Positions 3,489 through 63,572 of a stretch of DNA of 64,000 nucleotides are shown in pieces. The notes under the pieces are model-generated. The model ran no database searches, was not told the DNA's origin, and worked only from the letters and a program-made list of their open reading frames with translations. The number at the start of each line of letters is the position of its first letter. Position 1 is the first letter of the stretch. A program made the translations under genes and the position numbers. The stretch is from IMG/VR virus record IMGVR_UViG_3300021399_000098; one strand, 5' to 3'. The stretch is from a virus (Duplodnaviria > Caudoviricetes).

Positions 3489-6400
3489 TTATCTTCTACC
3501 CCACAAAGCAGTCTGTGATGGCAAGCCACGCATCTGTGCAGTATCATTCATGAATCTACCTCCGTTCACGTCATTGTTCATAGATGTCTTGATTATTTCC
3601 TTCAATGAAGAAATGAACTGTGAATCGTTCAATAGTTTTGAAATCTCTAACTCACGGCTAGAATTACCTGCATCTAACTTAATTGTACCATTTATCTTAA
3701 CGTTAATATCGTTTACTGTTATTTGGTTGCCGTTAACATTAGATACTTCAGTACCCCTAGGCTCATATATATACTCTCTTTCGCCAACTGGTTTAGCAAT
3801 AACATCATTAGTGTTGGTCAATATACTTGAAGCAACACTACTAACTAGGTCAGCACTATTTTGTATAGACTTAGCAACATCTGATGAACCACCTCCGAAT
3901 AGTCCAGTAATACCATTCCAAACTCCACTGACTGCACTTGAGAATGTGCTTATTATATCATTACCGAACAAACTGTTAATCAATGAACTTGGTAAACCCT
4001 CAATTAAGCCGAACAGCTTGGATTGTTGGTCAGGATTCAAGACCATTTCGCCACTGTTAACCCTGATTAAGACGTTATCACCTTCAGTTTGGTTTCCTCC
4101 AACAACACCGCCTTTGCTGAACAATCCGAATCCACTAGATATAAAATCCCATGCGCCACTAGCAGCATCGCTAACAGTTCCAGTTGTCCAATCCCAAGCA
4201 TCACCAATTGCATCGCCAATACCACCAAAGAAATCTCCAATACCACTGAATACGCTTGTTGCTATATCACCAATACCATCCCACATATTTGTTGCAACAT
4301 CAGTAATAGTGCCCAAAACGCCACCTGCGACATCCCTAATACCATCCCAAACACCAGTAGCAACAGAACTAATACCATTCCAAACACCAGTAGCAACAGA
4401 ACTAATACCATTCAAAACACCACTTGCGACATCACCAATACCATCCCAAACACCTTCAGCGACAGCTCCGATACCGTTAAACAGTCCTTTACCCATTGTT
4501 AGCAAACCACCGCCAATGTCACCCTTAAGCATTTGTCCAAATCCATCAACAACACCAGTACCAACTTTTCCGATACCATCCCAAACGCCCTTGGCAATAT
4601 CACCAACAGCAGAGGCAGCACCTCCAAGTACATCGCCAACGCCATTTGCAATGCCACCTACGACATCACCTACACCGTCAACGATACCTGCGCCAGCTTG
4701 TCCAAATACGCCTTCAGCAAAATCTCTTACTGGACCGTTCCAAGTATCTTTAATGAAATCAGTAGTTTCTTGCCAATGTTTACCGACAAATCCACCTACT
4801 TCACTGCCAAGCCAAACGCCTGCGGCTGTGCCAATAGGACCTAAAAGGCTACCCAAAGCGCCACCTGCAATAGCACCTACAGATTCACCAATAGCCTCGT
4901 TCTTGTTATTGGTAGCCTCCTTCATTGTGTCGTTATACTCTTGCTGAGTGATTTGTCCACCAGCCAACTGTGCATCAAGGTCTTTCTTAGTGTCTTTAAA
5001 ATCATTCATTCCAAGACCAGCACCTAATACAGACATTACTATACCAAGAGCACCTGCACTCTTTGCTGCCTTGGTGAATTTAAGCATATTTGTAGCTTGT
5101 AAGCTCTTTGCTCCATTGCCACCGACATTACCCATTATCTTGCCAGTAGCAGTGTTCATGATTTTTTGAGTACCATTAGCACCCTTAATCACTTTAGGAG
5201 CTTTCGTTGCACGTCTTAATGATGCTAATCTACCATTACCACTAGCTCTAAGTTCTCTATAGTTACCTTTGACATACCTTCCATATGAAACTACGCCACT
5301 ATTAGTAACTCTTCCTTTAGCTTTTGCTAATAGAGACCTACCACCTGAATTTTTAGCACCTTTAAACAAAGACCTACCACCTTTAACAGCAGCACGTCCA
5401 ACTCTAGCGCCACCTCCGAATAGTCCTCTTATTAAGCCAAAACCACCTCTAAATAATCCAATAATGTTGCCTAGCATACCAAGTATCTTTGTACCTGCGT
5501 AGATAAGCAAGAACCATTTGAAATTATCCAATATGAAGCTTAAGAAATTACTAATTCCCTCTATTAATTTTGTAATAAATCCTGTGTTACTTTTGATGAA
5601 AGTTATAACATCATTAACAGCCGCAGCAGCTTTTTGGCCTAAATTTTCAGCTTGTTCAATGATGGTAGGAGCAAATGTTTCAATTAACTCCATAATCTTA
5701 GGCAACTCTGCGTTCATGCTCTTTGCCAACGATGCAATTGATGATGTCTCTAGACCTTCTAACTTTTCGTTTATAGAGGTCAACTGCATTGCTTGGTCTC
5801 GCATGATTTGCTCATCGGACTTATTCTCCATTGACATCATCTGGTCTAACTGTCCGTTTTGAACAAGTGTGTCAACGTCTTGCTCCTTACCGTTCATGTC
5901 AGTCATCTTGAGCCTACCATCTTCACCTATATACGATGAATTGATGATGTAGTCTTCTTGCTGTTTGCTGTATCCTCTGCTCCTGATTTCTGCACCAAAC
6001 TGAGACTCCTTGTAATTTACCTCTGCTGTTTTTTTAGCAATCGACATTGCCTCGTCCATACTGATGCCCATCGCTTCGGCAATGCTCTTAACAAAGTCAC
6101 GGTTCATTCCGTTGACGTTTGCCATACCAGTTTTAGCATCAAATGTCGCGTAGCCGCCAAGTGTCTTGGTCATTCTTTCTGTAAATGCCTCTGGGTCATA
6201 ATTTGCCTCATATGACATTAGAAGAGGGTTAGAACCGTATGCGCCAGCAGCACCACCAAGCATCTGCAACTGTGCGGAATGCTCAATAGCCTTATCAAGC
6301 TCCATGAAGTTGCTAGCAGCTTGTTCTACTGATTGTAGGTTAAATCCAAGTTTCTCTGACAAAGCCGTCATCCTAATGATTCCATTGACACCATCACGGA

Positions 6401-7052: not shown

Positions 7053-7205
7053 ATGAAAGAGTCAAGAAGAGTATTTTATGAGATTTTTCCTAAGTTCATC
7101 TACGAATTTAGCTCAGTCAAAAGTTTCGTTTGGTTCATAATCGGACAAATCTTTGGGGGAATCTTAACATTGGGCTTAATTATTTGGTTTTTTTGGCCTG
7201 ACTGA
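7053..7205 (+). CDS. Small membrane protein
   Basis: Hydrophobic C-terminus (FVWFIIGQIFGGILTLGLIIWFFW); start refined to the ATG at 7053, downstream of the promoter. Confidence 0.5.
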   Translation: MKESRRVFYEIFPKFIYEFSSVKSFVWFIIGQIFGGILTLGLIIWFFWPD

Positions 7206-7225
7206 TATTTATTTAAAAAATAAAT

Positions 7226-7684
7226 ATGGAATTAACTGAAGAGTACCTTCATAAAGTGATTATGGAGTCTATTGGCGTTGTGCCAAACATATATAACGTT
7301 ATGTGGCTTTTCAACGAATATAACAATGCTTATTTCGATGGAGAGCTGCCCCTTCCTAGGTTTGTACTAGACCACGATAGAAGGTCACTAGGGGAATTCA
7401 GATGCTACTTTGATGAGTATGGTGAGGTTGATGACCCAGAAATTATGATAAGTGACTGTTATGAGTACACCGAAGAAAAGCTAAGAGACGTTTTAGTTCA
7501 TGAAATGATTCACTACTATTTAGCCTATACACAAGAAGACATTCGTATAAGTCACGGAAGTGCATTTCAAAGGATGGCCAATGACTTTAATTCAAGATAT
7601 GGAATGAACATAACAAAAACCGTAGATGTAACTGGTATGGGAACAGTAAAATACGGCAATTGGTTTACTAGAATGTTTCAGTAA
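7226..7684 (+). CDS. SprT-like zinc metalloprotease with a degenerate N-terminal LTE...IMES tag
   Basis: YNNAYFDGELP, VLVHEMIHY (HExxH), HGSAFQRMA. Confidence 0.85.
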   Translation: MELTEEYLHKVIMESIGVVPNIYNVMWLFNEYNNAYFDGELPLPRFVLDHDRRSLGEFRCYFDEYGEVDDPEIMISDCYEYTEEKLRDVLVHEMIHYYLAYTQEDIRISHGSAFQRMANDFNSRYGMNITKTVDVTGMGTVKYGNWFTRMFQ

Positions 7685-7697
7685 TAACAATTTAACA

Positions 7698-8363
7698 ATG
7701 GAAAAACAAATGGTAAATATAGACAAAATCATAACGGAAGTAATTAACAACAACGTAAACAACAACATATTTACGACTTTACAAGCGCACATCAATCCAA
7801 GTGGAAATAATAACTTATTAACTTGGATGAATTACTTGAAAAACGCCTTTATGAGTAACTCAAATTCTCAAGAAATAAATACGTTCTTGATGGAGCTTTA
7901 CAATTTCACAAATATGTTGGTTCAAGCGATACAAAGATGTGTCGCTAGGCAAAGTCTTAATGAAGCATTTTATGGGTCTTATGGCGGCTTTGACTTGGGT
8001 CAGTATGGAATGAAAACCCCATCCATCATAGGTCAAACCGCTAATGCATTTATGAATGGCTTCAACGGCCCTAGTTTAGCAGACAGAATACAAAGGCTTA
8101 GAGACAAATTCAGTGACAGACAGTCAAACACGCCACAGCAGCAAGGAAGGGGGCAAGGTAGGAGTTTTGTTCCACCAAAAAATACAAAACTACAAGTAAT
8201 ACTAACACAATATTTCCCACTTGTGCAAAGGAAATACAATGAATTGAATAGGAAATACAACAATGCGGTGGCACTTTTAAATCCTAGCTCACCACAATAC
8301 ATAATCGGAGAAGTGAATCAAATTATATCAGAATTAGGAAACGCTCAAAGGAATACCCCTTGA
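7698..8363 (+). CDS. Hypothetical protein
   Basis: 221-aa ORF followed by a hairpin terminator. Confidence 0.7.
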   Translation: MEKQMVNIDKIITEVINNNVNNNIFTTLQAHINPSGNNNLLTWMNYLKNAFMSNSNSQEINTFLMELYNFTNMLVQAIQRCVARQSLNEAFYGSYGGFDLGQYGMKTPSIIGQTANAFMNGFNGPSLADRIQRLRDKFSDRQSNTPQQQGRGQGRSFVPPKNTKLQVILTQYFPLVQRKYNELNRKYNNAVALLNPSSPQYIIGEVNQIISELGNAQRNTP

Positions 8364-9933: not shown

Positions 9934-10551
9934 TTAAATATTATCTATTAATCTTATTTTCTCAATGAAAACTATTAGTGTGCCGTCCTCAAGAATGTCC
10001 ATTATTTTGCAGTTCTCTAAAATGGCGTATATATCTTCATTAGCATTGTTCTTAAAATGCATCTTTAAGTTTCTCTTAGGTTCGTTAACCCAAGTCCATT
10101 CCTCACCCTTAAAGTCTTTGTATTGGTTTATCCCATTATGTTCTTTCATCCAGAGCGAAACTTCAGTTTCAAATTCCTCTTCGCTAGAATCCATGTCGAA
10201 TTCAATCATTTCCAAAAATGGTTTTTGCTTCGCAAAATGGGTTATTATACCATCTACAGTTTCATCGTTTCCCTTATCATCATACAACGTTCCGTTACAA
10301 CTCGAATAAGCCACTTTATCTTCGCTCTGTTGGCTTTGTGCGCCAAACTTGTATGTTTGCCCATCAGTGCCCATTAAAAGGCTTCCTGAGCCGTTTTTTG
10401 CATCCATAACTGAGTTGAAGACAACGTCCTTGTTTTTGTTGTATTCATTCGACACTGCTTTGATGTACTCTTCCTCATCGTAGTAGTTGTTATCAACGTC
10501 AAAAGCGCCATCGTTATAGTCATAATAAGGTAAATATAGCGTAACTTCCAT
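9934..10551 (-). CDS. Hypothetical acidic protein
   Basis: 205-aa ORF, co-oriented and tightly packed in the operon. Confidence 0.7.
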   Translation of the reverse strand: MEVTLYLPYYDYNDGAFDVDNNYYDEEEYIKAVSNEYNKNKDVVFNSVMDAKNGSGSLLMGTDGQTYKFGAQSQQSEDKVAYSSCNGTLYDDKGNDETVDGIITHFAKQKPFLEMIEFDMDSSEEEFETEVSLWMKEHNGINQYKDFKGEEWTWVNEPKRNLKMHFKNNANEDIYAILENCKIMDILEDGTLIVFIEKIRLIDNI

Positions 10552-10563
10552 GATAAATACTGT

Positions 10564-11088
10564 CTATTTTATTTTATTTATATGCCTTTTGTTCTTTTTT
10601 TCTGCTATTTCTATCTTATCCTTTTCAAAATGTAGTCTTTCCTTAAGTTCTTTCATCACTTTGCTAGGTGTGTCTCTGATGTCCTTTTCCCAAATCCTCA
10701 TGACTGGTATTCCATGCATTAACGCCCACCTATCCTTATATTCATCCACCCTCTTGTTGTGCTTTTGCATCGGATTCATTTCGCTTTCCTTCACAAGTCT
10801 AGGGTCTGAATGGTAGTAAGAACCATCTATTTCAATTATAAGGTTGTGCTTCGGAAGATAAAAGTCATAAAAACGTCCAATGTCCTTTGCTTCAAACTGC
10901 CAGATATATTCAACCTTTAGCTTATCTAAGAAATCATTTGCAAAGTCTTGTTCCAATTTTGATGTTCCGAACTTAGGGTGTTTGCGCACAGCCCTTTTGG
11001 CTACCTTTGGGGCTGTACGCTTTTTTGTGGCCTGTTTATTTTGTTTGCTCACTGAGGTGTTGCCCCTTTTTTTAGTTATTTGCTTCAT
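10564..11088 (-). CDS. Vsr/DUF559-like PD-(D/E)xK endonuclease
   Basis: TSKLEQDF...YDFYLP...IIEIDGSYYH...DEYKD...VMRIWE. Confidence 0.8.
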   Translation of the reverse strand: MKQITKKRGNTSVSKQNKQATKKRTAPKVAKRAVRKHPKFGTSKLEQDFANDFLDKLKVEYIWQFEAKDIGRFYDFYLPKHNLIIEIDGSYYHSDPRLVKESEMNPMQKHNKRVDEYKDRWALMHGIPVMRIWEKDIRDTPSKVMKELKERLHFEKDKIEIAEKKNKRHINKIK

Positions 11089-11950
11089 ATGTTACAGCTT
11101 GATATTCAACTAAAATCTGGATTGTTGAAAACTCTGATATGGAGTAATCTATTGGGTCTCTATATATTTCAGTAATGTGACACCCAAAATACTTTTCCGT
11201 ATAAATTGGATTGCCATTAGCCTCAAGATGCTGTATAGTGAACTTAAATAGGCTTGGCACTCCATTCAACAATTCCAACACTGGCATTTTCATTCCATTA
11301 ATATCCTTTACGAAATCATAAATGTTAATAGAAAGTTGCTTACTACTTGGGTCAAATGAAACTGACTTAACCATAACCTCTGGAATTCCAACGTCATCCA
11401 AATGCACTAAAAACCTATTTCCTAATATCCTAGAATCAATCGTCTTGTTGATTTCATCTAAATACTTGTTAGATGTTGAAGCAGAAACCTTTTTAACTTC
11501 TTTGCATATTCTAGATAATTCCTTCCTTTCTTCTTCCTCTACTCTTGCAAAGCAGTCTGAATCATTTTTCCTTTCCTTTTTAGGTAAAACTATTCCACTA
11601 TATAAATCGCCATAGTTCAAAGGATTTTTCTTCTCTTCACCCAAGTCCAATTCAACAGCCTTGGTTTGCTTTACAATGGAATCATAAAATCCGTGTTTGT
11701 CAGGCTTTTTTGGTTCATAATGCGTATAAACCACTTTTTCCTCTTTTGAATTTTTTAGGTCATTTTTAATTGCTTCGATTTCATTCAACGTTTCATTAAT
11801 TTCATTTTTCATGTTTTTAACCAACTCTTCGTTGCCATCCCTTCTAATCATTTCCGTTAAGGTATTGTTAAGCATCTTATATTGGTTTATCCTAGTCCAT
11901 AAAAGACTGTTAAGATACTCACTATTTCTTTCAAATGTACATGTGCTCAT
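11072..11950 (-). CDS. Protein with an N-terminal coiled coil and a C-terminal tail-tube-like domain
   Basis: C-terminal half aligns by eye with the tube protein 15265..15753 (NRFLVHL..VGIPE vs NRWLLRF..LGIQE; IDYS..FSTIQI vs LDYS..LATISL). Confidence 0.55.
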   Translation of the reverse strand: MSTCTFERNSEYLNSLLWTRINQYKMLNNTLTEMIRRDGNEELVKNMKNEINETLNEIEAIKNDLKNSKEEKVVYTHYEPKKPDKHGFYDSIVKQTKAVELDLGEEKKNPLNYGDLYSGIVLPKKERKNDSDCFARVEEEERKELSRICKEVKKVSASTSNKYLDEINKTIDSRILGNRFLVHLDDVGIPEVMVKSVSFDPSSKQLSINIYDFVKDINGMKMPVLELLNGVPSLFKFTIQHLEANGNPIYTEKYFGCHITEIYRDPIDYSISEFSTIQILVEYQAVTYEANN

Positions 11951-15264: not shown

Positions 15265-15753
15265 TTAGTAACACAAAATTGCGTAGTCAAATCTCAAGGT
15301 AAGTGATATAGTGGCCAAATCATCTTGGCTGTAATCCAAATCACCAAAATCTGCTGCGGTACACATGGTGTTCTTTAAAATCCATTTAGAAACAACAACA
15401 CCAGTTGGGTCTAGCATTTCAAGCTCAACATCACGCTTATAACCTGCTGCATAACCTTGTCTACCACTGACTGACTCAGAGTGAAGACGTACCCACTCCA
15501 TAACAGCTTGTGAAGCAGATGGGCCGATTGGGTCTCTCAAGGTAACTTGAATCTCATCCCAAGTGTAACGACCTACAACGTATGTCTCTGTATTTAGGAA
15601 CGGAATAGCCTTACCTTCTTGCTTGATTGATGGACGCTTTGCGCTCTGACACCACCACTCTTGGATACCTAGGTCAGCTGGAAATCTCAACAACCATCTG
15701 TTTTTCCTGAGCGGCTCATAATTGAGCGGCATTTTCAAAAGTAAATCACTCAT
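15265..15753 (-). CDS. Tail tube protein (T4 gp19-like)
   Basis: 162 aa; EPLRKNRW, WDEIQVTLRDPIGPSASQAVMEW, EMLDPTGVVVSKW, FGDLDYS. Confidence 0.9.
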   Translation of the reverse strand: MSDLLLKMPLNYEPLRKNRWLLRFPADLGIQEWWCQSAKRPSIKQEGKAIPFLNTETYVVGRYTWDEIQVTLRDPIGPSASQAVMEWVRLHSESVSGRQGYAAGYKRDVELEMLDPTGVVVSKWILKNTMCTAADFGDLDYSQDDLATISLTLRFDYAILCY

Positions 15754-15905: not shown

Positions 15906-17564
15906 ATGGTAGATAAAAAAGCAAAATTCATTGAAAAGTCTAAAAATAGGCATGGTGATAAATACGACTATTCTAAAGTGGAATATATTGATAGTTTAAC
16001 AAAAGTATGTATCATATGCCCCATTCATGGCGAATTTTGGCAAACTCCACAAGGTCATGTAAGGGGTCAAGGTTGCCCAAAATGTGCAAACATCAAAAGA
16101 GGTGATACATTTAGGTCTGATGGTGATACATTCATTAAACGTGCAACTGTTTTGCATGATGGTAAATATATATACGATAAAGACTCTTACATTAATGCAA
16201 TGACAAAAGTTCCAATACTTTGCTTAAAGCACGGAACATTCTGGATGACTCCAATGAATCATCTACTAGGTCAAGGTTGTCCTAAATGCAGTGGTAGGGG
16301 GTTAAACACTGAAGAGGTTATAGAACTGTTTAAGGAGAAACATGGCGATAGCTATGATTATTCCAAAGTTGTATTTACTAAAATGCATGAAAAGGTTTGT
16401 ATAATATGCAAAGAACATGGTGAATTCTGGCAAACCCCTAGCAAGCATCTTTTAGGTCAAGGATGCCCAAAATGCAGTGGTATTAAAAAAGCAAAAGAAA
16501 GGACATTAACAACAAATGATTTTATTGAAAAATCTTCGAAAATTCACAACAATAAATACGTTTATGACAAAACAAAATATAAAGGTACATATGAATCGCT
16601 TACAATAACTTGCCCCATTCACGGAGATTTTACGCAAAGGGCGAATGACCACCTCAATGGTCACGGATGCCCAATATGCGGCAACAATATGTCGCTTGCT
16701 GAGAAAGAAATTGAAGATTATGTTAAATCTTTTGGTGTTAAAACTGAAACTAAAATTAGAGGCATACTAAGCAATAATAAAGAAATTGATATATTAATAC
16801 CAGAATTAAACATAGGAATTGAATATAATGGCTTAAAATGGCACTCTGATGAATTTAAAGATAAAAATTATCATCTAAATAAAACAGAAGAATGTAAAAA
16901 ATTAGGAATACGACTTGTTCATATCTTTGAAGATGAATGGATGAATAAAAAAGAAATTGTTAAAAGCATTATACGCAATATAATCGGTAAAACTGAAAAT
17001 AAAATATATGCTAGAAAATGTATCATTCAAAATGTTAATGACAATGAGAAAAAAGAATTTTTAGAAAAAAATCATATACAAGGAAATATTAATTCACAAA
17101 TAAATTTAGGACTATATCACGATGGTGAACTAGTATCACTAATGTGCATCGGTAAACCTAGAATCAATTTAGGCAGAAAAACATCATTAGAAAATGAATA
17201 TGAACTCTTACGTTTTTGTAATAAACTTAATACAAATATTGTTGGCGGTGCAAGTAAACTATTTAAATATTTTATAACAAACTATAGTCCAACGCTAATA
17301 ACATCCTACTGCGATTATAGATGGAGCATTGGTAATATGTATGAAGCATTGGGATTTACTTTATCCCATCTTTCACAGCCAAACTACTATTACATAATTG
17401 GCAATAATAGAAAAAATAGATTTAAATATAGAAAATCAGAATTAATTAAAGAAGGTTTTGACCCAGAAAAATCAGAAAAAGAAATAATGGAAGAAAGAGG
17501 AATACACCGAATATACGATTGTGGGTCATTGGTATATATATGGAAAAATGAGGATAGAAACTAA
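15906..17564 (+). CDS. Putative homing endonuclease (four Cys/His zinc repeats plus a Hef-like PD-(D/E)xK nuclease)
   Basis: 4x YDYSK..C..HG.F....H..G.GCP.C; EIDILIP..IGIEYNGLKWHS; HIFEDEW; YELLRFC; RIYDCG. Confidence 0.8.
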   Translation: MVDKKAKFIEKSKNRHGDKYDYSKVEYIDSLTKVCIICPIHGEFWQTPQGHVRGQGCPKCANIKRGDTFRSDGDTFIKRATVLHDGKYIYDKDSYINAMTKVPILCLKHGTFWMTPMNHLLGQGCPKCSGRGLNTEEVIELFKEKHGDSYDYSKVVFTKMHEKVCIICKEHGEFWQTPSKHLLGQGCPKCSGIKKAKERTLTTNDFIEKSSKIHNNKYVYDKTKYKGTYESLTITCPIHGDFTQRANDHLNGHGCPICGNNMSLAEKEIEDYVKSFGVKTETKIRGILSNNKEIDILIPELNIGIEYNGLKWHSDEFKDKNYHLNKTEECKKLGIRLVHIFEDEWMNKKEIVKSIIRNIIGKTENKIYARKCIIQNVNDNEKKEFLEKNHIQGNINSQINLGLYHDGELVSLMCIGKPRINLGRKTSLENEYELLRFCNKLNTNIVGGASKLFKYFITNYSPTLITSYCDYRWSIGNMYEALGFTLSHLSQPNYYYIIGNNRKNRFKYRKSELIKEGFDPEKSEKEIMEERGIHRIYDCGSLVYIWKNEDRN

Positions 17565-17610
17565 TCTATTCTCATTTATTATTTCAAATTATTTTTTATA
17601 TATTTGCAAT

Positions 17611-17985
17611 ATGGAACTAAAAATACTTTTTTTAATGATATTACTGCATATCATAGATGATTTCCACTTACAAGGAATATTGGGTAATATGAAGCAGAAA
17701 AATTGGTGGCTAAAGCAAAAAGGATATAAAGATATGTACAAGTATGACTACATGACTGCATTGACGATTCATTCTCTGTCTTGGTCAATAATTATCTCTA
17801 TTCCGCTTTGGTTTTTTAACATTACCCCAAGCATACTAGGTATAATAATATGCTGCAATATGTTTATTCATATGTATGTTGATGACTTGAAATGTAATCA
17901 ACTAAAAATAAGTCTTACAACTGACCAAACAATACATATAATCCAAATTTGGATAACATGGTATATTGTGTATTTTTTAATATAA
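17611..17985 (+). CDS. DUF3307-like membrane protein
   Basis: LLHIIDDFHLQG, H..VDDLK, DQTIH; hydrophobic; start refined. Confidence 0.65.
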   Translation: MELKILFLMILLHIIDDFHLQGILGNMKQKNWWLKQKGYKDMYKYDYMTALTIHSLSWSIIISIPLWFFNITPSILGIIICCNMFIHMYVDDLKCNQLKISLTTDQTIHIIQIWITWYIVYFLI

Positions 17986-17986
17986 A

Positions 17987-18012
17987 AAGGTACTGATTAA
18001 CGTCAGTACCTT
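17987..18012. terminator. Bidirectional intrinsic terminator
   Basis: aaggtactga-ttaacg-tcagtacctt flanked by A/T runs. Confidence 0.7.
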
Positions 18013-18070
18013 ATTTTTTATTTCCTGTGTCAGTTAATACCTTATCACTTTCCAAAAATACTTTCTTGAA
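18011..18070 (-). pseudogene. Stranded, synonymously diverged copy of the last 19 codons plus stop of gene 18772..19164
   Basis: Translates to FKKVFLESDKVLTDTGNKK*, identical to that gene's C-terminus; no in-frame ATG before an upstream stop. Confidence 0.9.
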
Positions 18071-18222
18071 AAGAAATGCACGAATCTGCAAGACTAATAG
18101 AAATCTTGCATATTTTTTGTATCTTTTTTTTACTATACAATTCCATAACAGAGTATATTACGTCTTGGTATACACATCATAATACAGCATAAAAAAAGAG
18201 CAACCACTGCTGATTACCCTTT

Positions 18223-18654
18223 TTATGCACGATATACATGTATGTTTTGAAGGTGGAATTTTGAAAGTCTTGGGTAATTTTCTTTTGACCATATTACCAC
18301 AACAAAATCATTATTTCTAAACGAATGTGAATCGTCTTTTTCGTCAAATCCCAAATAATTCATTCCATATTTTTGTTCTAGTAATTCTTTAATAAAATTA
18401 AAGTCAAGAACAGCTCCTTTGTCATATATATTATAAAACCCATATTTATCTTTTAAATCTTTTACAATACTAGATTCCAAATCATCTTCATCTTCTGCCA
18501 TACATGCAGCATTTAACTCATCGTCATCTAAAATTCCTGTAATGTTTCTAATTTGCTTATTTGTTAAATCTATTTCGCTCAATATTCTATTTACCGACTC
18601 TTTTACAATTCTATGAAGGTCTCCTTCTGTTAATCTTATGAGTTTCTTATTCAT
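18223..18654 (-). CDS. Hypothetical protein with N-terminal IRLTEGDLHRIVKESV tag
   Basis: Start refined to MNKKLIRLTEGDL; motif shared with the genes at 27088, 57222 and 63144. Confidence 0.75.
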   Translation of the reverse strand: MNKKLIRLTEGDLHRIVKESVNRILSEIDLTNKQIRNITGILDDDELNAACMAEDEDDLESSIVKDLKDKYGFYNIYDKGAVLDFNFIKELLEQKYGMNYLGFDEKDDSHSFRNNDFVVVIWSKENYPRLSKFHLQNIHVYRA

Positions 18655-18771
18655 ATTATATATACATATTTGATTCATTATTTTTAAATAATATATAAGC
18701 AAATGCAGAAAAATGCAGTAATTTATGACTGCATTTGCATAGTGTTTACTACCAATAAGTATATAAGTTCA

Positions 18772-19164
18772 CTATTTTTTATTTCCTGTATCAGTAAGAA
18801 CTTTGTCTGATTCTAGAAACACTTTTTTGAAAAATTCGTACAAGCTTGATGTAGGGTGGTCTGCATATTTCTTTAAACCTTCAATTGCTGTTTCCCTGAT
18901 TTTACCGATAATTGGCTCATGTTGGATGACCTCTTGAGCGTGCATTGCAATCTCTTCCTCAGAGTCACCTTGACCCATCATTTGCTGTTGCTGTGGCTGA
19001 ACCATACTTGGGTCTGGTTGCTGCTCTTCTCCCATTTCTGGAGACATTTCCATACCCATTCCATCATCCATTGCGCCCTCGTCACCATTGAATATATAAT
19101 CCTCTGAGAGTTGTTTCTTCAAAGTTTTCAACTCTTCTAAAACATTCTTAAAATTCTTTTTCAT
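18772..19164 (-). CDS. Hypothetical protein (Met/Gln/acid-rich) between sheath and tube
   Basis: 130-aa ORF; TATTTATA motif at 19187-19194. Confidence 0.8.
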   Translation of the reverse strand: MKKNFKNVLEELKTLKKQLSEDYIFNGDEGAMDDGMGMEMSPEMGEEQQPDPSMVQPQQQQMMGQGDSEEEIAMHAQEVIQHEPIIGKIRETAIEGLKKYADHPTSSLYEFFKKVFLESDKVLTDTGNKK

Positions 19165-19264
19165 AATTAATAAACGTTTATTTCTATATAAATATTAATT
19201 AACGTTAAAAATATTGCTATATATTTGGCCAATTCAATTTTTTTTAATATCTTTGCAAAAAAAT

Positions 19265-19810
19265 ATGGATAAAAAGGAACTATTAATATCAAAAGGTAAA
19301 CACCTTGCTTTCCTTTTAAGACATGATAAGGAAGCATTAGATAATGGTATAATTGACCATAATGGTTGGAGAAATGTTTCAGAACTAATCAAAAATCAAG
19401 GATATACAAATGAAATTCTTGAAGAAATAGTCGAAACAAATAACAAGAAACGTTATGAGTTCAATGAAGCCCATACCAAGATACGTGCAAGACAAGGGCA
19501 TTCAATTAATGTAGATGTTGGATTAACTGAAACAATACCGCCTAATATATTATATCACGGAACGTCAACAAAGGCATTAGAATCGATTTACAAGCGAGGA
19601 ATCCTAAAAGGTGAAAGATTATACGTTCACTTGTCAAAAGACGAAGAAACAGCCTTAAAAGTGGGTTCTAGACACGGTACGCCATATGTACTACTAATTG
19701 ATTCTGAACAGATGTATGAGGATGGCATAAAATTCTACTTATCCAACAATGGGGTTTGGCTAACTGATTACGTTGATGCTAAATACATAAAAAAAGAGGA
19801 AGATTATTAG
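19265..19810 (+). CDS. kptA: RNA 2'-phosphotransferase (Tpt1/KptA family)
   Basis: LLRH, NNKKRY, IRARQGHS, LYHGT, VHLS, NGVWLT; TATCTTTG promoter at 19248. Confidence 0.92.
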   Translation: MDKKELLISKGKHLAFLLRHDKEALDNGIIDHNGWRNVSELIKNQGYTNEILEEIVETNNKKRYEFNEAHTKIRARQGHSINVDVGLTETIPPNILYHGTSTKALESIYKRGILKGERLYVHLSKDEETALKVGSRHGTPYVLLIDSEQMYEDGIKFYLSNNGVWLTDYVDAKYIKKEEDY

Positions 19811-19840: not shown

Positions 19841-20887
19841 TTAAATATCATCGAATGAAACACCCTCTATTTTCTTTTTTAATTGTTCCATATTATTACA
19901 AACATTATCATTTGTGTAAAGTCCATCAAACTTTTTGCTAGACTTATAATAAGGTACTGTATTCTTTTTTGGGATATAATATAACAATTTTATCCCTTTT
20001 TCTTTACATAACTTATTTTTATACAAGTCTCTATGCAAATTTTTCTCAAATTCTTCCTCAGCCCATTTTTCTCCTCTCCCAGCAAAATCTACTGATTTAA
20101 AATGCTGTCTCCCTTGACATTCTATTGCAACATTTTCTTTAACAAGATAAAAATCAAGTGAATTTTTATTATTAGTCTTATCGTATCTATATTGACTAAT
20201 AAAATCAATTTTATTTTCTAATAGCCAGTTAAAGACCTCTTTTTCTAACTTACTTTGAGCACAATGAGGACACCCCCTACCTCTTAAATGGTTATTTGGA
20301 GTAACATAAAATATCCCATGTTTTTTACATATCACTGGTATTTTTGTTCTATTATTGGAATATTTAGTAAACAATGAATAATCATATAAATCTCCATAAA
20401 CATTTTTAAATTGTTCTTTAACATTATCCACTGTTAATCTCCCTCTACTATCCCATATTCTTTTACATTTACATTTAGGACAACCTTGACCACGAATGTG
20501 GTCTACTGGTCTTTGCCAGAATTCACCGTGTTCTACACCATTTTCGTCTTTTTCATGGCAAATTATGCATACATTATTATGTGTCCCATTTACTTCAGAC
20601 TTTGAATAATCATACCTCCCATCATGAACTTTTTTTGCTTCATTGATAAATGATTCAGTTGTTCTCTTGGCATTTCCACTACAATATGGACATCCATGTT
20701 TTCTATTTATGTGATGGTCAAAATCTTGATAAAAAACACCATGTTCAATACCATTTTTATCTTTTTCGTGACACACAATTGGATATTTTACTCTGTTATT
20801 TTTGTACTCATGGATTAACGAATAATCATATTTGTGATTATGAATTTCATTTGCTTTGTCTATTACTTTTTCTAAATTACATTTCAT
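19841..20887 (-). CDS. Putative homing endonuclease (three Cys/His repeats plus a PD-(D/E)xK domain) ending in a copy of the sheath C-terminus
   Basis: 3x HG.F....H...GCP.C; SKLEKEV, LDFYL..VAIECQGRQHF; C-terminus EGVSFDDI*. Confidence 0.8.
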   Translation of the reverse strand: MKCNLEKVIDKANEIHNHKYDYSLIHEYKNNRVKYPIVCHEKDKNGIEHGVFYQDFDHHINRKHGCPYCSGNAKRTTESFINEAKKVHDGRYDYSKSEVNGTHNNVCIICHEKDENGVEHGEFWQRPVDHIRGQGCPKCKCKRIWDSRGRLTVDNVKEQFKNVYGDLYDYSLFTKYSNNRTKIPVICKKHGIFYVTPNNHLRGRGCPHCAQSKLEKEVFNWLLENKIDFISQYRYDKTNNKNSLDFYLVKENVAIECQGRQHFKSVDFAGRGEKWAEEEFEKNLHRDLYKNKLCKEKGIKLLYYIPKKNTVPYYKSSKKFDGLYTNDNVCNNMEQLKKKIEGVSFDDI

Positions 20888-20987
20888 ACTTCCTTCTATT
20901 TTAATATAAATAGTTACTAAACTCAAAAACCACTCCTTCTGGTGCAAAGATATGTAATATTTTTTTAATAAACAAATTTTTAGCCAA

Positions 20988-21049: not shown

Positions 21050-24000
21050 TTAAATATCGTCAAAAGAGACCCCCTCTGGGGATAAAATAAAATCGATTGT
21101 TATGTACTCAAGAGCATTGTAAGGCTTGAAGTAAATCTTACATGGAAGCTCTCTTCTCTCTCTTGACTCGATTGAGTCGTTAACCTCGATTCTGTAGTCT
21201 GAGATACCTCTGTTGCCTCTGATGCTATCCAAAATTGGAGTTACAGTTGAAATGAATGACTGCTTAACTGTTGCATCATTTGGTTCAAAGATTAAACCGA
21301 TACATGAAATTGCAATAAGCTTTCTCAACCTTAGAAGCAATCTACGAACTGCGATTCTATTAAGTTGTGACTCATTAATCTGCAAGTTCTTTTGACCCCA
21401 AATCTTTGGACCGTCTTGCGCAAAGGTCTTAACTGGGTTAATTCTACCATCGTACAATACATCCTCGTCAGCCAACTTAGTGATGAAGTGTGCTCTTACG
21501 CAATCAACATTACCACGCTCAATACCTGCTGGTGCGAACCAAGGCCATGCTGTGTTATCAGTCTGTGCGAAGTTTCTAACTGCATCCTTTGTAGGTGGTA
21601 AGTAAATGTATTGATTGTTATCAACATCCAAATACTTAACCCAAGGATAATATGTACATGAATAGTTAGAATCAATTTCAGTGTCCTCTAGGTTATAAAC
21701 TGCATCCTCTGGTGTATACATTTCATCAACGAAATCATCTGCACCACTTGGCTTATCAGGAGTTGTTATAACATAGATACTGTCAGCTCTTTCCTCTTCA
21801 ATCATTTCGATTGCCTCTTCTACAAGAAGCTTCTGATTTACATAGTCAATACCTGGAGTTGCAAATACGTTAATATCTGTTGCCTCTGGTGTTGCGAACT
21901 GTCTAATACCGCTCAAGTAAGCATACCAGTCAGATGTGATACCATTCTGATTCAACTGTAGAAGCTCAGGATTCATAATCTTACTGAATGCATAACCCTC
22001 ACCACTGTTTTGGTTGATATAACCTCTGTACTGTGACATCTTGAACTTGTCAGTGTTGGTTCTCTGGTCTCTGTAAACATCCCATCCATCGAATCCTCCA
22101 TAGAAGAATACAGTGAATTTACGAAGATTTACATACTCATAGATTGAACCATACATGTTCTCTTCCTTGTCAATGATAGGTGCTCTGTCAAGAACTTGTG
22201 TTCTAGCATTAGTTGAAACGCTATCGAATACATATCCATACTCTCCATCAACAGTGACAGAACCACTTGATACACCACCATTGGCATAATCCAAACGGCT
22301 ATCTAGATGGAAGCCATGAGAAAGGAATTCAGGTTCATTAATATAAGTCATATTACCCTTGAATGTGAAGTTATCAATGTCAACTCCTACCCATGAAGAA
22401 AGTCCAAAGTATTGCTTTCTATTCTTAATATCTTCATCGAAGTCTCTATTGTACTTGATTGTTGGGAATGAAACTCCTTCCAATGCATCACCTGCGATTG
22501 GAGTACCACTGTACATTGGAATTGGATAACCCAAGAAGCCTGCTGGTACTGAATTCTTAGCAGCCAATGTATCATTTACCTCAACAGTGATGAACTTTGA
22601 CTTAGACTCATATACACCATCAAATGAACCAATCTTGAATGCTATGTAATTTGAATCACCTGGAACCATTGAGCATCTTCCAAACTTCTCAAGTGGGATG
22701 ATTGATTCATCAAGGTCATCAATTCTACGTACTACAACGTCAAATACGCCCTCATCAGGTCTAATGTTCTCAATAGATACCTTAACCTCGTAGTTAGCAT
22801 TGTCACCGTCAGAAATGGTGTGGAATCTGAACAACTTGTTAACCTCAACTTTCTCCAAGTCACCCTTCAAGTTAGAAACAATCCAAGGAGTAGAAGCATA
22901 TCTGTAAGCTGACTTATAATCATTCATATCAAACTTAACATAAGTAACATTAGATTCATCGTCATCCATTCTATAATATAAGCCGTCTGCCTTGTTGTAA
23001 ACCAATGTTGAAGTGTTACTAGTGTTGCCTTTAGTGCCACCATACTTCAAGTTACCGTAGTAGTTAACCTTATCTGATTCACTAGTAGCACTAGAAGTTC
23101 CGCTAGTAACGCTATCTGCGGTATAATAAGTATATAAATACTGTCTCTTACTGTCTTGTGTGGTATATTGCTTTACAGTATAAATCTGTCCAACCTTAAT
23201 TGCTTCTTGAACAACATCATTAGCTACATCTGTCCAAGCTGAAGAAGAAGAAACTAACTCGTATCCTGTTGGGATTGTTGGACTATCGATTTCCTTCTTT
23301 GGTCTATTACTCCAAGTTAAATATTCGGTTGTGGCTGTTGTCAATCCACTTGTTTCTGAAGTATTTCCTTTCCATTGATAGTTCCATTTTATCATCTTTT
23401 CTTCATCAGCACATTGTACTCCTGTAGTAGCAGTTTGGTCTAGAACATATGCATCCTTAAGTATTTGTGGATTGTTGCTGCTAAAGATATAAGGTGTACA
23501 TAAGATACCCTTGTCGCTTGCATTATTATCTGCCAAGTATCTCATACCAACGTACTTTCTAGTAAGTGCCGTATGAGGAATTGTCATTAATGCACTAATT
23601 GGCTGATGCCAACAATAGTCAGCGATTGCATATGCTTGAACACCAACTAATGTGCTATCAATCTGATTAAGACTAAGTGCTGCAATACCTTGCTCAAGTG
23701 CAACGTCATAAAGAGACTCGACATAGATTGGTGAATCACCATTATCTGCCTTTGTACCCAAAACCTTTAAGATATATTCCTTATCCTCTGGGTTTAAACT
23801 CACTGCATATTCAAAATAACCACTATCACCACTTGAAGGTGTGGTATTGTCCGCATGAGGGCCTTTTATACCTTTAATCTTGAATCTTCCTCTGTTGGTC
23901 TGTGAAATTGACCATGAGCCAGCACCGCCAGACATGCTATGACCATCGCACTCATTACCACTGTCAGTCATTGGAATGTATTCTGAAATCGTCAATGCAC

Positions 24001-24529
24001 TTAAATTGTATGTGTTCTTAACGCAATCAGAAGCAGAATTACCACTTACCTCTCCGACTTCATATTGTAGAACATCATACTTGCTAGGTTCACAAGTACA
24101 AGCTGTGGTTGAGCCTGTCTTATATAAATCGTATCCACCTCTTGAACGTAGGACAACAACTGCTTGTCTGTCACTATTACCTCCATTTGATGCCGTTACA
24201 ATCCATGCAGGACCTGCGTTGTAACCACTTAGACCAAGTACACGCACAACTTTAAGTTGCTCACTTTCAGTCAAATATGACTTAGCAATGTAAGGCAACT
24301 CGTATTTAGGATATTTACTTCCCTTGAATTTCTCTGTACTTGTTCCACCAAACATTTCTTGGAACTCACGCCAGTTAGCAATGTCCATTGGCTGAAAAGC
24401 TGGACCTTTTAGGGTCTCACCAACAACACCAAGTGTTGTGATACCAAGACTACGGACAGCGTAAGTCATGTCTATCTCACGAGTATAAATACCTGGTGAA
24501 ACATGTATTCCTCTTGCATTATCTGCCAT
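21050..24529 (-). CDS. Tail sheath protein (contractile tail)
   Basis: VSPGIYTREID, GETLKGPAF, PWFAPAGIERG, RINPV, IWGQKNLQ, LNRIAVRRLL, FEPND. Confidence 0.95.
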   Translation of the reverse strand: MADNARGIHVSPGIYTREIDMTYAVRSLGITTLGVVGETLKGPAFQPMDIANWREFQEMFGGTSTEKFKGSKYPKYELPYIAKSYLTESEQLKVVRVLGLSGYNAGPAWIVTASNGGNSDRQAVVVLRSRGGYDLYKTGSTTACTCEPSKYDVLQYEVGEVSGNSASDCVKNTYNLSALTISEYIPMTDSGNECDGHSMSGGAGSWSISQTNRGRFKIKGIKGPHADNTTPSSGDSGYFEYAVSLNPEDKEYILKVLGTKADNGDSPIYVESLYDVALEQGIAALSLNQIDSTLVGVQAYAIADYCWHQPISALMTIPHTALTRKYVGMRYLADNNASDKGILCTPYIFSSNNPQILKDAYVLDQTATTGVQCADEEKMIKWNYQWKGNTSETSGLTTATTEYLTWSNRPKKEIDSPTIPTGYELVSSSSAWTDVANDVVQEAIKVGQIYTVKQYTTQDSKRQYLYTYYTADSVTSGTSSATSESDKVNYYGNLKYGGTKGNTSNTSTLVYNKADGLYYRMDDDESNVTYVKFDMNDYKSAYRYASTPWIVSNLKGDLEKVEVNKLFRFHTISDGDNANYEVKVSIENIRPDEGVFDVVVRRIDDLDESIIPLEKFGRCSMVPGDSNYIAFKIGSFDGVYESKSKFITVEVNDTLAAKNSVPAGFLGYPIPMYSGTPIAGDALEGVSFPTIKYNRDFDEDIKNRKQYFGLSSWVGVDIDNFTFKGNMTYINEPEFLSHGFHLDSRLDYANGGVSSGSVTVDGEYGYVFDSVSTNARTQVLDRAPIIDKEENMYGSIYEYVNLRKFTVFFYGGFDGWDVYRDQRTNTDKFKMSQYRGYINQNSGEGYAFSKIMNPELLQLNQNGITSDWYAYLSGIRQFATPEATDINVFATPGIDYVNQKLLVEEAIEMIEEERADSIYVITTPDKPSGADDFVDEMYTPEDAVYNLEDTEIDSNYSCTYYPWVKYLDVDNNQYIYLPPTKDAVRNFAQTDNTAWPWFAPAGIERGNVDCVRAHFITKLADEDVLYDGRINPVKTFAQDGPKIWGQKNLQINESQLNRIAVRRLLLRLRKLIAISCIGLIFEPNDATVKQSFISTVTPILDSIRGNRGISDYRIEVNDSIESRERRELPCKIYFKPYNALEYITIDFILSPEGVSFDDI

Positions 24530-27087: not shown

Positions 27088-27522
27088 ATGAAAAAAATTA
27101 TTAGACTTACTGAAAGTGATTTACATAACATTGTCAAAAAATCTGTAAACAAAATACTTAGAGAAAGCTTTGATAGATGGACTGAAAAAGGTTCATGCTA
27201 TATATCAGACAAATTCTTAGAGGCTGTTGCGCAAGTTGTAGATGAAGATGTTTACGATTCACTAAACGCATACGTATCAAATAACCCAAAAGCATTTTAC
27301 CTCATAGGCGTATTCGATGTGGGTTATGATGACGAAACTGGTTATGGAGACAAAAACTCTCTAGTATATGAACTAAGAGATGTTAAAGGAAAAGACAAGG
27401 CAATGCAATACCTTATGAACTTCCAAACTGACACACAGACATTGAAAACTATTATACAAATATTTAACAATGTGGTCATAAACCTTGATGAGACTGATTT
27501 TGGTTTAGGCGAAGAATATTAA
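27088..27522 (+). CDS. Hypothetical protein with N-terminal IRLTESDLHNIVKKSV tag
   Basis: Shared motif; own promoter motif and terminator. Confidence 0.8.
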   Translation: MKKIIRLTESDLHNIVKKSVNKILRESFDRWTEKGSCYISDKFLEAVAQVVDEDVYDSLNAYVSNNPKAFYLIGVFDVGYDDETGYGDKNSLVYELRDVKGKDKAMQYLMNFQTDTQTLKTIIQIFNNVVINLDETDFGLGEEY

Positions 27523-57221: not shown

Positions 57222-57722
57222 TTATTTTTGATATTTTTCAACTCCCTTTTGAAAACCATAATTATATCCAGCCTCATTATTATGACTTCTAAGAGGGTTT
57301 GGCGTATTTAAACTATCCTTATAACCTTTCCAAGCTTCATCATCAGCTCTTCCAATAATTTTGGAATTTTCAGCCCTATCTTTAATACCCATATTAGTTC
57401 TATACCCCTTTGCTGCTCTCCTACCTTTAACTGCATTAAGGGCAAAATTACCACGAGGCGTATCACCAATTTCACTCAGTATTCTGTTTACAGACTCTTT
57501 AACAATTCTATGTAAGTCTGACTCTGTTAATCTTATAATGGTTTGTTCCTCAACTTTTTCTGGAAGTCCTTTATGCTTTGTTTCAGCAAAATCTTTAACA
57601 TCATTCATTGACATTCCATTTGCAGCTTTCTTTATCTTGCTGCTTGGATTCTTCATTTCACCTTTCTTATAGGCATCAACCATACCGAAGAATCTCTGTT
57701 GTGCTTTACTCTTACTTGGCAT
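57222..57722 (-). CDS. DUF3008-like N-terminus plus internal IRLTESDLHRIVKESV tag
   Basis: MPSKSKAQQRFFG..DFAETKHKGLPEKV; tag at 57468-57539. Confidence 0.75.
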   Translation of the reverse strand: MPSKSKAQQRFFGMVDAYKKGEMKNPSSKIKKAANGMSMNDVKDFAETKHKGLPEKVEEQTIIRLTESDLHRIVKESVNRILSEIGDTPRGNFALNAVKGRRAAKGYRTNMGIKDRAENSKIIGRADDEAWKGYKDSLNTPNPLRSHNNEAGYNYGFQKGVEKYQK

Positions 57723-63143: not shown

Positions 63144-63572
63144 TTAGATTTGTACAATTAGAAGAATAGTATTTCTATCCATCTTAACTCTCTTATATTC
63201 TTTCCAATTTAGCAATTCTGCCAAAGCATATAATTGCGATAATTTTAGGTGATTCTTACCAAACTGTAAAGGCATTCTAAGATATTTAGAAGTCATTTCA
63301 TGTCCATTAAGCATCGGATTTGCACTAATTACCCCATCTTTATCTAGTGTGTCAAATGAGTCTCCCATTCTTGTTAATTTTGAATTAAGGGCATCTAAAT
63401 CCTCTTGTGTTAGACCTATTTTTATAGTTTGACTATAATGATGCCCCTCATCATCCCAATTGCTAGGATAACTAACAGAAGGCATACTTTCTTCCTTTAA
63501 TACTCTTTTTACTGATTCCTTCACGATTCTATGAAGGTCTGATTCTGTTAGTCTAATTAATTTCTTATCCAT
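63144..63572 (-). CDS. Hypothetical protein with N-terminal IRLTESDLHRIVKESV tag
   Basis: MDKKLIRLTESDLHRIVKESVKRVLKEE; TATTTATA motif at 63631-63638. Confidence 0.8.
   Translation of the reverse strand: MDKKLIRLTESDLHRIVKESVKRVLKEESMPSVSYPSNWDDEGHHYSQTIKIGLTQEDLDALNSKLTRMGDSFDTLDKDGVISANPMLNGHEMTSKYLRMPLQFGKNHLKLSQLYALAELLNWKEYKRVKMDRNTILLIVQI

Follow-up and report, generated by a model that had tools for sequence, protein, structure and literature searches.

The stretch of DNA analysed here (hereafter the window; 64,000 nucleotides) comes from an uncultivated myovirus whose related contigs reach 401-413 kb. The interval between its tail sheath gene (24529..21050, minus strand) and its tail tube gene (15753..15265, minus strand) includes a gene for a protein of 130 amino acids, which we call g130, and whose working full-length copy occupies 19164..18772 on the minus strand. 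When read from sheath to tube, the interval contains a homing-endonuclease gene (20947..19841, minus strand), an RNA 2'-phosphotransferase (Tpt1/KptA) gene on the strand opposite to that of its neighbours (19214-19810), g130, a tagged ORF of 143 amino acids (18654..18223, minus strand), a convergent gene for a small membrane protein (17611..17985, plus strand; phrog_2470), and a second endonuclease gene (15906..17564) located between the membrane-protein gene and the tube gene. In the simplest relative (L007), sheath, g130 and tube directly adjoin each other, and all other genes of the interval in the window are accessory.

The Tpt1/KptA gene is one of these accessory genes, being present in some relatives and missing from others. 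It also provided the sole match when the region was compared with deposited phage genomes by DNA search, in this instance to two Clostridioides phages. The closest relative, L001, carries two IS1595-family transposase genes (7102-8121 and 10308-11294; Pfam DDE_Tnp_IS1595 plus zinc ribbon) that share an orientation and flank a two-gene block within the sheath-tube hotspot, and the window represents the uninterrupted site of the first of these genes.

The duplicated end of g130

The last 19 codons of the working g130 gene and its TAG stop codon (copy A; 18772..18831, minus strand) have a counterpart located farther downstream (copy B; 18011..18070, minus strand), which consists of 19 orphaned codons and a TAA stop codon. 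Both minus-strand segments, 18831..18772 and 18070..18011, translate to FKKVFLESDKVLTDTGNKK followed by a stop. The two copies are identical at 46 of 60 bases, with nine sense codons and the stop codon differing, and the differences include Ser TCA/AGT, Leu CTA/TTG and Leu CTT/TTA. Copy B cannot be considered a chance resemblance, because a tblastn search with the last 30 residues of g130 recovers it with an E value of 1.6e-8. The use of TAG by copy A raised the idea of stop-codon reassignment, which is irrelevant here given that a TGA codon follows directly.

Copy B has no ATG or GTG start. Going upstream, its reading frame is closed after 48 codons and offers no start-like codon except a TTG, which would yield 26 amino acids. 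Its stop codon overlaps a bidirectional terminator hairpin (17987..18012), one of three terminator-like sites that were found when 0.2 were expected. The ORF at 18223..18654 is the only one between the copies, and it has no match in Pfam or PHROG. Thus, the description given in an earlier note on this DNA, namely a gene end repeated with an identical peptide and many altered codons, a stranded copy that lacks a start and abuts a terminator, and a sole tagged ORF in the middle with no nuclease, is accurate on each of these points. An identical arrangement is present at locus L054 (100% identity over 1901 nt), which is a separate assembly from run SRR873602 that may derive from the same sample as the window.

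Every ORF of the window and of the first 50 related loci was scanned for a C-terminus repeated downstream or an N-terminus repeated upstream. The g130 case stood alone, with the scan otherwise returning paralogous tags and internal repeats. The earlier note had proposed a genome-wide search of this kind, and within the window and these 50 loci there is no genome-wide recoding system.

Allelic origins of the two copies

We gathered g130 loci from viral contigs (49) and from metagenome contigs (80). The N-terminal half of the protein is acidic, rich in Q and variable, while the C-terminal 65 residues are invariant despite near-saturated synonymous change. Specifically, 17 of the 18 relatives compared have the same last 65 residues (window 18772-18966), with only 42-64% of the corresponding codons identically spelled. 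Searches of g130 against Pfam and PHROG yielded nothing above threshold, with DUF816 as a sub-threshold Pfam match, even though the gene keeps a constant position between sheath and tube. Of the first 49 loci, 18 encode the 19-residue peptide without change, using 13 distinct spellings that have 41-59 of 60 bases in common, and every codon of copy B, including the AGT Ser codon and the TTG and TTA Leu codons, is found in working alleles. Therefore, g130 is under strong constraint, and its 3' end circulates among these phages in many synonymous spellings.

Given this constraint and this variety of spellings, the 46/60 identity between copies A and B reflects natural divergence between alleles. 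The earlier note had regarded one copy as recoded, and this part of its argument fails: with 13 spellings in 18 loci, the differences are those expected of ordinary alleles. The apparent recoding is not designed, and the synonymous differences would have existed between alleles beforehand.

Copy B, for its part, is what remains of an ordinary mainstream allele, namely its orphaned end, and it still occupies its native context. In insert-free relatives (L008, L012-14, L031, L066 and L074), the working 3' end of g130 is collinear with window positions 18072..17577 at 88.8-91.1% identity, over a tract that covers the gene end, the terminator hairpin and the membrane-protein gene, which is the native downstream neighbour. 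In relatives this hairpin natively adjoins the g130 stop codon, and in L013 and L060 it lies right after the working stop codon. The working ends closest to copy B match it at 53-55 of 60 bases, and copy B carries the mainstream motif GAT AAG GTA TTA. An exact search of viral contigs with 47 nt of copy B gave no matches. Relatives that lack the insert and end in the sequence of 18011-18070 had been predicted from the window alone, and the collinear loci agree with this prediction. They also agree with the proposal that an old gene end was left behind, still joined to its terminator and downstream gene. We conclude that copy B is a recombination scar and not a working device.

Copy A has a different history. 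It is identical to the corresponding end in L001, matches L099 at 57 of 60 bases (including a perfect run of 52 nt) and L082/L083 at 53 of 60, and shares no more than 49 of 60 bases with any other locus. Block-wise identities reveal that g130 is chimeric both in the window and in L001. When compared with L004 and L057, the window gene is 77-93% identical over the first 300 alignment columns and about 75% identical thereafter. The comparison with L099 gives 57-74% identity at the 5' end, increasing to 91-94% toward the 3' end and standing at 94% over the last 90 nt. Informative sites switch allegiance at alignment columns 312/321, which correspond to window positions 18874-18865 (Fisher p=1e-7, with 69 cut points considered). 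The patch of different ancestry, which is near-identical to the allele located beside a homing-endonuclease gene in L099, extends over informative sites at 18796..18865 on the minus strand. Its left limit lies between 18874 and 18865 and its right limit between 18796 and 18784, for a length of about 70-95 nt. Identically spelled codons amount to roughly 45% over the last 20 codons of copy A and roughly 60% over the preceding 45, although 20 codons are a small sample.

These data reveal an imported C-terminal piece that is in frame with a resident g130 core of different ancestry, and so the proposal that the working end is a foreign replacement holds for this patch. The copy-A type of 3' tract occurs on at least three g130 backgrounds. 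For example, L099 and L083 differ from the window and from each other in the 5' part of g130 and agree in the 3' part. L083 carries the copy-A spelling and has no endonuclease gene, and the spelling of copy A may simply be the native allele of one lineage.

Cargo and endonuclease genes past the g130 stop codon

The DNA between copies A and B includes two repeated units. The first is a cargo cassette (18163..18757, minus strand) that comprises an upstream region with a 10-nt inverted repeat (18738..18699), the tagged ORF (18654..18223) and a conserved 3' flank. A copy with 91.7% identity over 611 nt is found at L050, which adjoins baseplate-like genes and shares a contig with L020, and further copies reside in other contexts at L051 (89%) and L052/L053 (85%). 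Homology among the cassette copies begins about 15 nt past the g130 stop codon, and the copies at L050, L051 and L052/L053 include no piece of g130. The cargo cassette is therefore a self-contained, independent unit. The second unit is a repeated intergenic element with an 8-bp palindrome (18071..18148, minus strand) that aligns with L001 (8248-8333), L046 and L050. At each of these loci the element runs on into different sequence; in the window it breaks off where copy B begins. At the right junction lies TTCAA (18066..18070, minus strand), five nucleotides with which the intergenic element ends and copy B starts. In AT-rich DNA a microhomology this short could arise by chance, and it is weak evidence when taken alone.

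The tag of the cargo ORF is an N-terminal sequence of about 27 residues (MNKKLIRLTE.DLHRIVKESV...) that is present on at least four otherwise unrelated small ORFs of the window (18574-18654, 63492-63572, 57468-57539 and 27091-27324), and also on many ORFs of related loci, often directly past g130. A database search with the tag returned 399 proteins, and among the 120 listed approximately 100 match the tag only. The tag belongs to no family in Pfam or PHROG, and a literature search located no paper on this motif. A short contig of 1534 nt, which encodes protein P0001, carries g130 and a cargo gene with 99% identity to that of the window, and the distance to the following gene is 96 nt shorter than it is in the window. 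This contig may represent a haplotype that lacks both copy B and the terminator.

In six lineages (L019/20/98, L065, L096/118, L040, L099 and L120), a free-standing homing endonuclease has its home site immediately past g130. Its gene (phrog_559/9084) is encoded on the opposite strand and situated 16-54 nt past the g130 stop codon. An additional 46 distinct alleles, each with enough downstream DNA to judge, have no endonuclease gene at this site. In L020 and L065, orphaned g130 ends lie beyond the endonuclease gene, sharing one common junction and representing different alleles. In L020 the remnant keeps 12 codons intact and departs from the L008 end at 2 of 39 bases. That of L065 equals the L004 end except for two 1-nt indels that break the frame. 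Of the 135 loci compared, a set with many redundant members, only 2 carry such long remnants. L060 represents a third independent event, and is a miniature of the same scar: the last bases of g130 form a 9-nt direct repeat, AAAAAATAA (3825-3833 and 4601-4609), on either side of two small inserted genes.

The endonuclease-linked alleles also differ in their spelling. All six distinct alleles with the gene read AAA followed by GTT or TTR, compared to 5 of the 46 without it (p=2e-5), a count made on related, non-independent sequences that is the one source for the putative recognition site. Most of the other alleles read AAG GTA at this position. Copy A falls into the endonuclease-linked class, and copy B is mainstream. 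Given that an endonuclease gene occupies this exact site in six lineages and that the alleles of these lineages depart from the mainstream spelling, we consider a link to the nuclease plausible. If so, the GAC AAA GTT CTT of copy A, in place of GAT AAG GTA TTA, would plausibly make it resistant to cleavage.

A parallel arrangement exists at the sheath gene of the window. Both the sheath gene (21050-21076) and the adjacent endonuclease gene (19841-19867) end in EGVSFDDI and a stop codon, and these ends are spelled differently. The layout is that of a stranded gene end with a nuclease gene (19841..20947) in the middle, and the sheath end of L004 is closer to the downstream copy (93.5%) than to the upstream one (82.7%).

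Origin of the scar and its likeness to known systems

On balance, we favour the view that the scar results from the repair of a double-strand break between co-infecting relatives, with an endonuclease as the probable initiator. During a mixed infection, the mainstream g130 3' end of one parent would have suffered a break, for which the endonuclease of a co-infecting relative is the most likely cause. The break would then have been repaired from a parent carrying the copy-A allele and the cassette, using homology on the gene side and the TTCAA microhomology on the far side, and this would have left the last 60 nt of the recipient gene stranded before its own terminator. The left exchange lies inside or upstream of g130, and the right junction is the microhomology. 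The copy-A patch itself was probably gained earlier at the same hotspot, since L001 has the patch without copy B. The L001 arrangement thus implies at least two events at this hotspot, whose order is deduced from this comparison. One limit on the involvement of an endonuclease is that the window genome carries no endonuclease gene between the two copies.

The absence of a nuclease gene at this spot favours an alternative origin of the same scar, without any endonuclease. Two co-infecting relatives would have undergone one unequal (illegitimate) crossover where they happened to share a microhomology, which joined the cassette-downstream DNA of one parent to the g130 3' end of the other. The sheath-tube interval is a general hotspot for gain and loss, as revealed by its tagged ORFs, IS1595 copies and membrane-protein gene. 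Moreover, a plain crossover would account for the rarity of long remnants, and the copy-A spelling exists in L083 without an endonuclease gene. However, the last ~95 nt of g130, where an endonuclease family also has its home, account for at least four independent events, represented by copy B, the copy-A patch, the L060 repeat and the remnant of L020/L065, and the alleles linked to that family depart systematically from the mainstream spelling, albeit among related sequences. We judge a plain crossover to be a credible but less likely origin than an endonuclease-started break.

Far less credible is the proposal that the tagged-ORF cassette is a mobile element bearing its own recoded replacement for the gene end. 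Copy A does directly precede the cassette, and the layout mimics that of the mobile endonuclease ORFs of fungal mitochondria (PMC3630166). Yet the other cassette copies carry no gene piece, L001 combines an identical copy A and the same N-terminal tag with a different ORF body, and both L099 and L083 have ends of the copy-A type without the cassette. This proposal, which the earlier note had advanced, is largely refuted by L050-L053. What survives of it is that a foreign end was imported and an old end stranded; what does not is the role of the cassette as carrier.

An assembly artefact, in which sequences of two strains from the same sample were wrongly joined in tandem, is highly improbable. 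The sample is rich in related strains, and the P0001 contig, with its almost identical cargo gene and its shorter distance to the next gene, could be taken as a hint in this direction. Against this, copies A and B have no exact run in common longer than about 17 nt, which is too short to cause a misjoin, both junctions consist of unique sequence, the arrangement is repeated in the separate L054 assembly, and analogous remnants exist on the unrelated contigs L020 and L065. We give next to no credence to a functional copy B, either as a small translated ORF or as a selected sequence such as an endonuclease decoy or landing site, for although it shows no amino-acid change in 19 codons and keeps the presumed sensitive spelling, it offers no start codon other than TTG, is missing from the closest relative, has a frameshifted equivalent in L065, and with 57 intact bases looks as a young scar is expected to look.

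Returning to endonuclease-started repair, a broader conjecture can be formulated, which we regard as improbable in its full form. In giant phages, the sites where endonucleases reside next to the ends of essential structural genes might serve as hotspots of cargo capture, with one-sided repair of the breaks importing non-nuclease accessory genes, and the stranded, still-cleavable gene end might persist as a harmless landing pad or decoy that spares the working gene when it is attacked again.

The scar provides a datable, sequence-level footprint of the exchange of short patches and accessory genes in very large uncultivated phages, although 57 bases are too few to time the event. One gene of 130 codons exhibits several independent traces, including an imported 3' patch and a stranded old end, and its relatives add the likely culprit, an endonuclease gene with stranded ends of its own, one intact and one decaying. 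Together, the g130 and sheath cases suggest that such 'gene-end fossils' could serve as markers when the home sites of endonucleases and the history of recombination are mapped in phage genomes from metagenomes. They also carry a warning for annotators, in that perfect peptide conservation accompanied by heavy synonymous change need not signify deliberate recoding.

Several known systems resemble this locus in part. Mobile endonuclease ORFs (mORFs) of fungal mitochondria create gene hybrids, as reported for atp6 of Allomyces macrogynus and for atp6, atp9, cox2 and nad3 of Glomus (PMC3630166). As in those hybrids, a foreign C-terminal piece is in frame with a resident core and is followed by an inserted gene, with the native piece stranded downstream. 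The native piece likewise groups with close relatives and the inserted piece elsewhere, and the differences are largely synonymous. Unlike in the mORF hybrids, the middle gene in the window does not encode an endonuclease, and at the g130 site an endonuclease is found only in relatives. This further feature of such hybrids, an endonuclease gene between the two gene ends, is seen in L020, in L065 and at the sheath end of the window. In addition, the host is a very large phage rather than an organelle, the replaced patch spans only about 70-95 nt, and the cargo cassette also moves alone.

Phages of the T4 type undergo intronless homing and marker exclusion by free-standing endonucleases, including the Seg and Mob proteins (PMC2988022, PMC2790892). 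Here too an endonuclease gene is variably present beside a conserved gene, the flank is co-converted with an identity gradient toward the site, and the endonuclease-bearing genomes may have variant spellings of the putative target, a comparison that in our case is made among related sequences. Textbook homing differs in that it uses homology on both sides and leaves no duplicate, and the word 'duplicat' was not found in the text of the review of T4 mobile elements (PMC2988022). One-sided homology with microhomology junctions has been demonstrated experimentally for T4 intron homing, as reviewed in PMC2988022, and the scar shares with it one homologous flank and a microhomology junction on the other side. 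That case is a laboratory construct involving a group I intron, whereas ours is a natural product in an uncultivated phage with non-nuclease cargo.

Finally, promoter/stem-loop cassettes (PeSLs) are reported to shuffle small genes in the hyperplastic regions of T4-type phages (PMC2839356, PMC4122927). The resemblance lies in a small orphan gene that carries its own conserved flanking hairpins at different loci of related phages. The cassette flanks in the window are at most candidate promoters, and PeSL shuffling leaves a stranded gene end unexplained. Considered together with the mitochondrial and T4 systems, the scar is a natural phage instance of processes that are already known.
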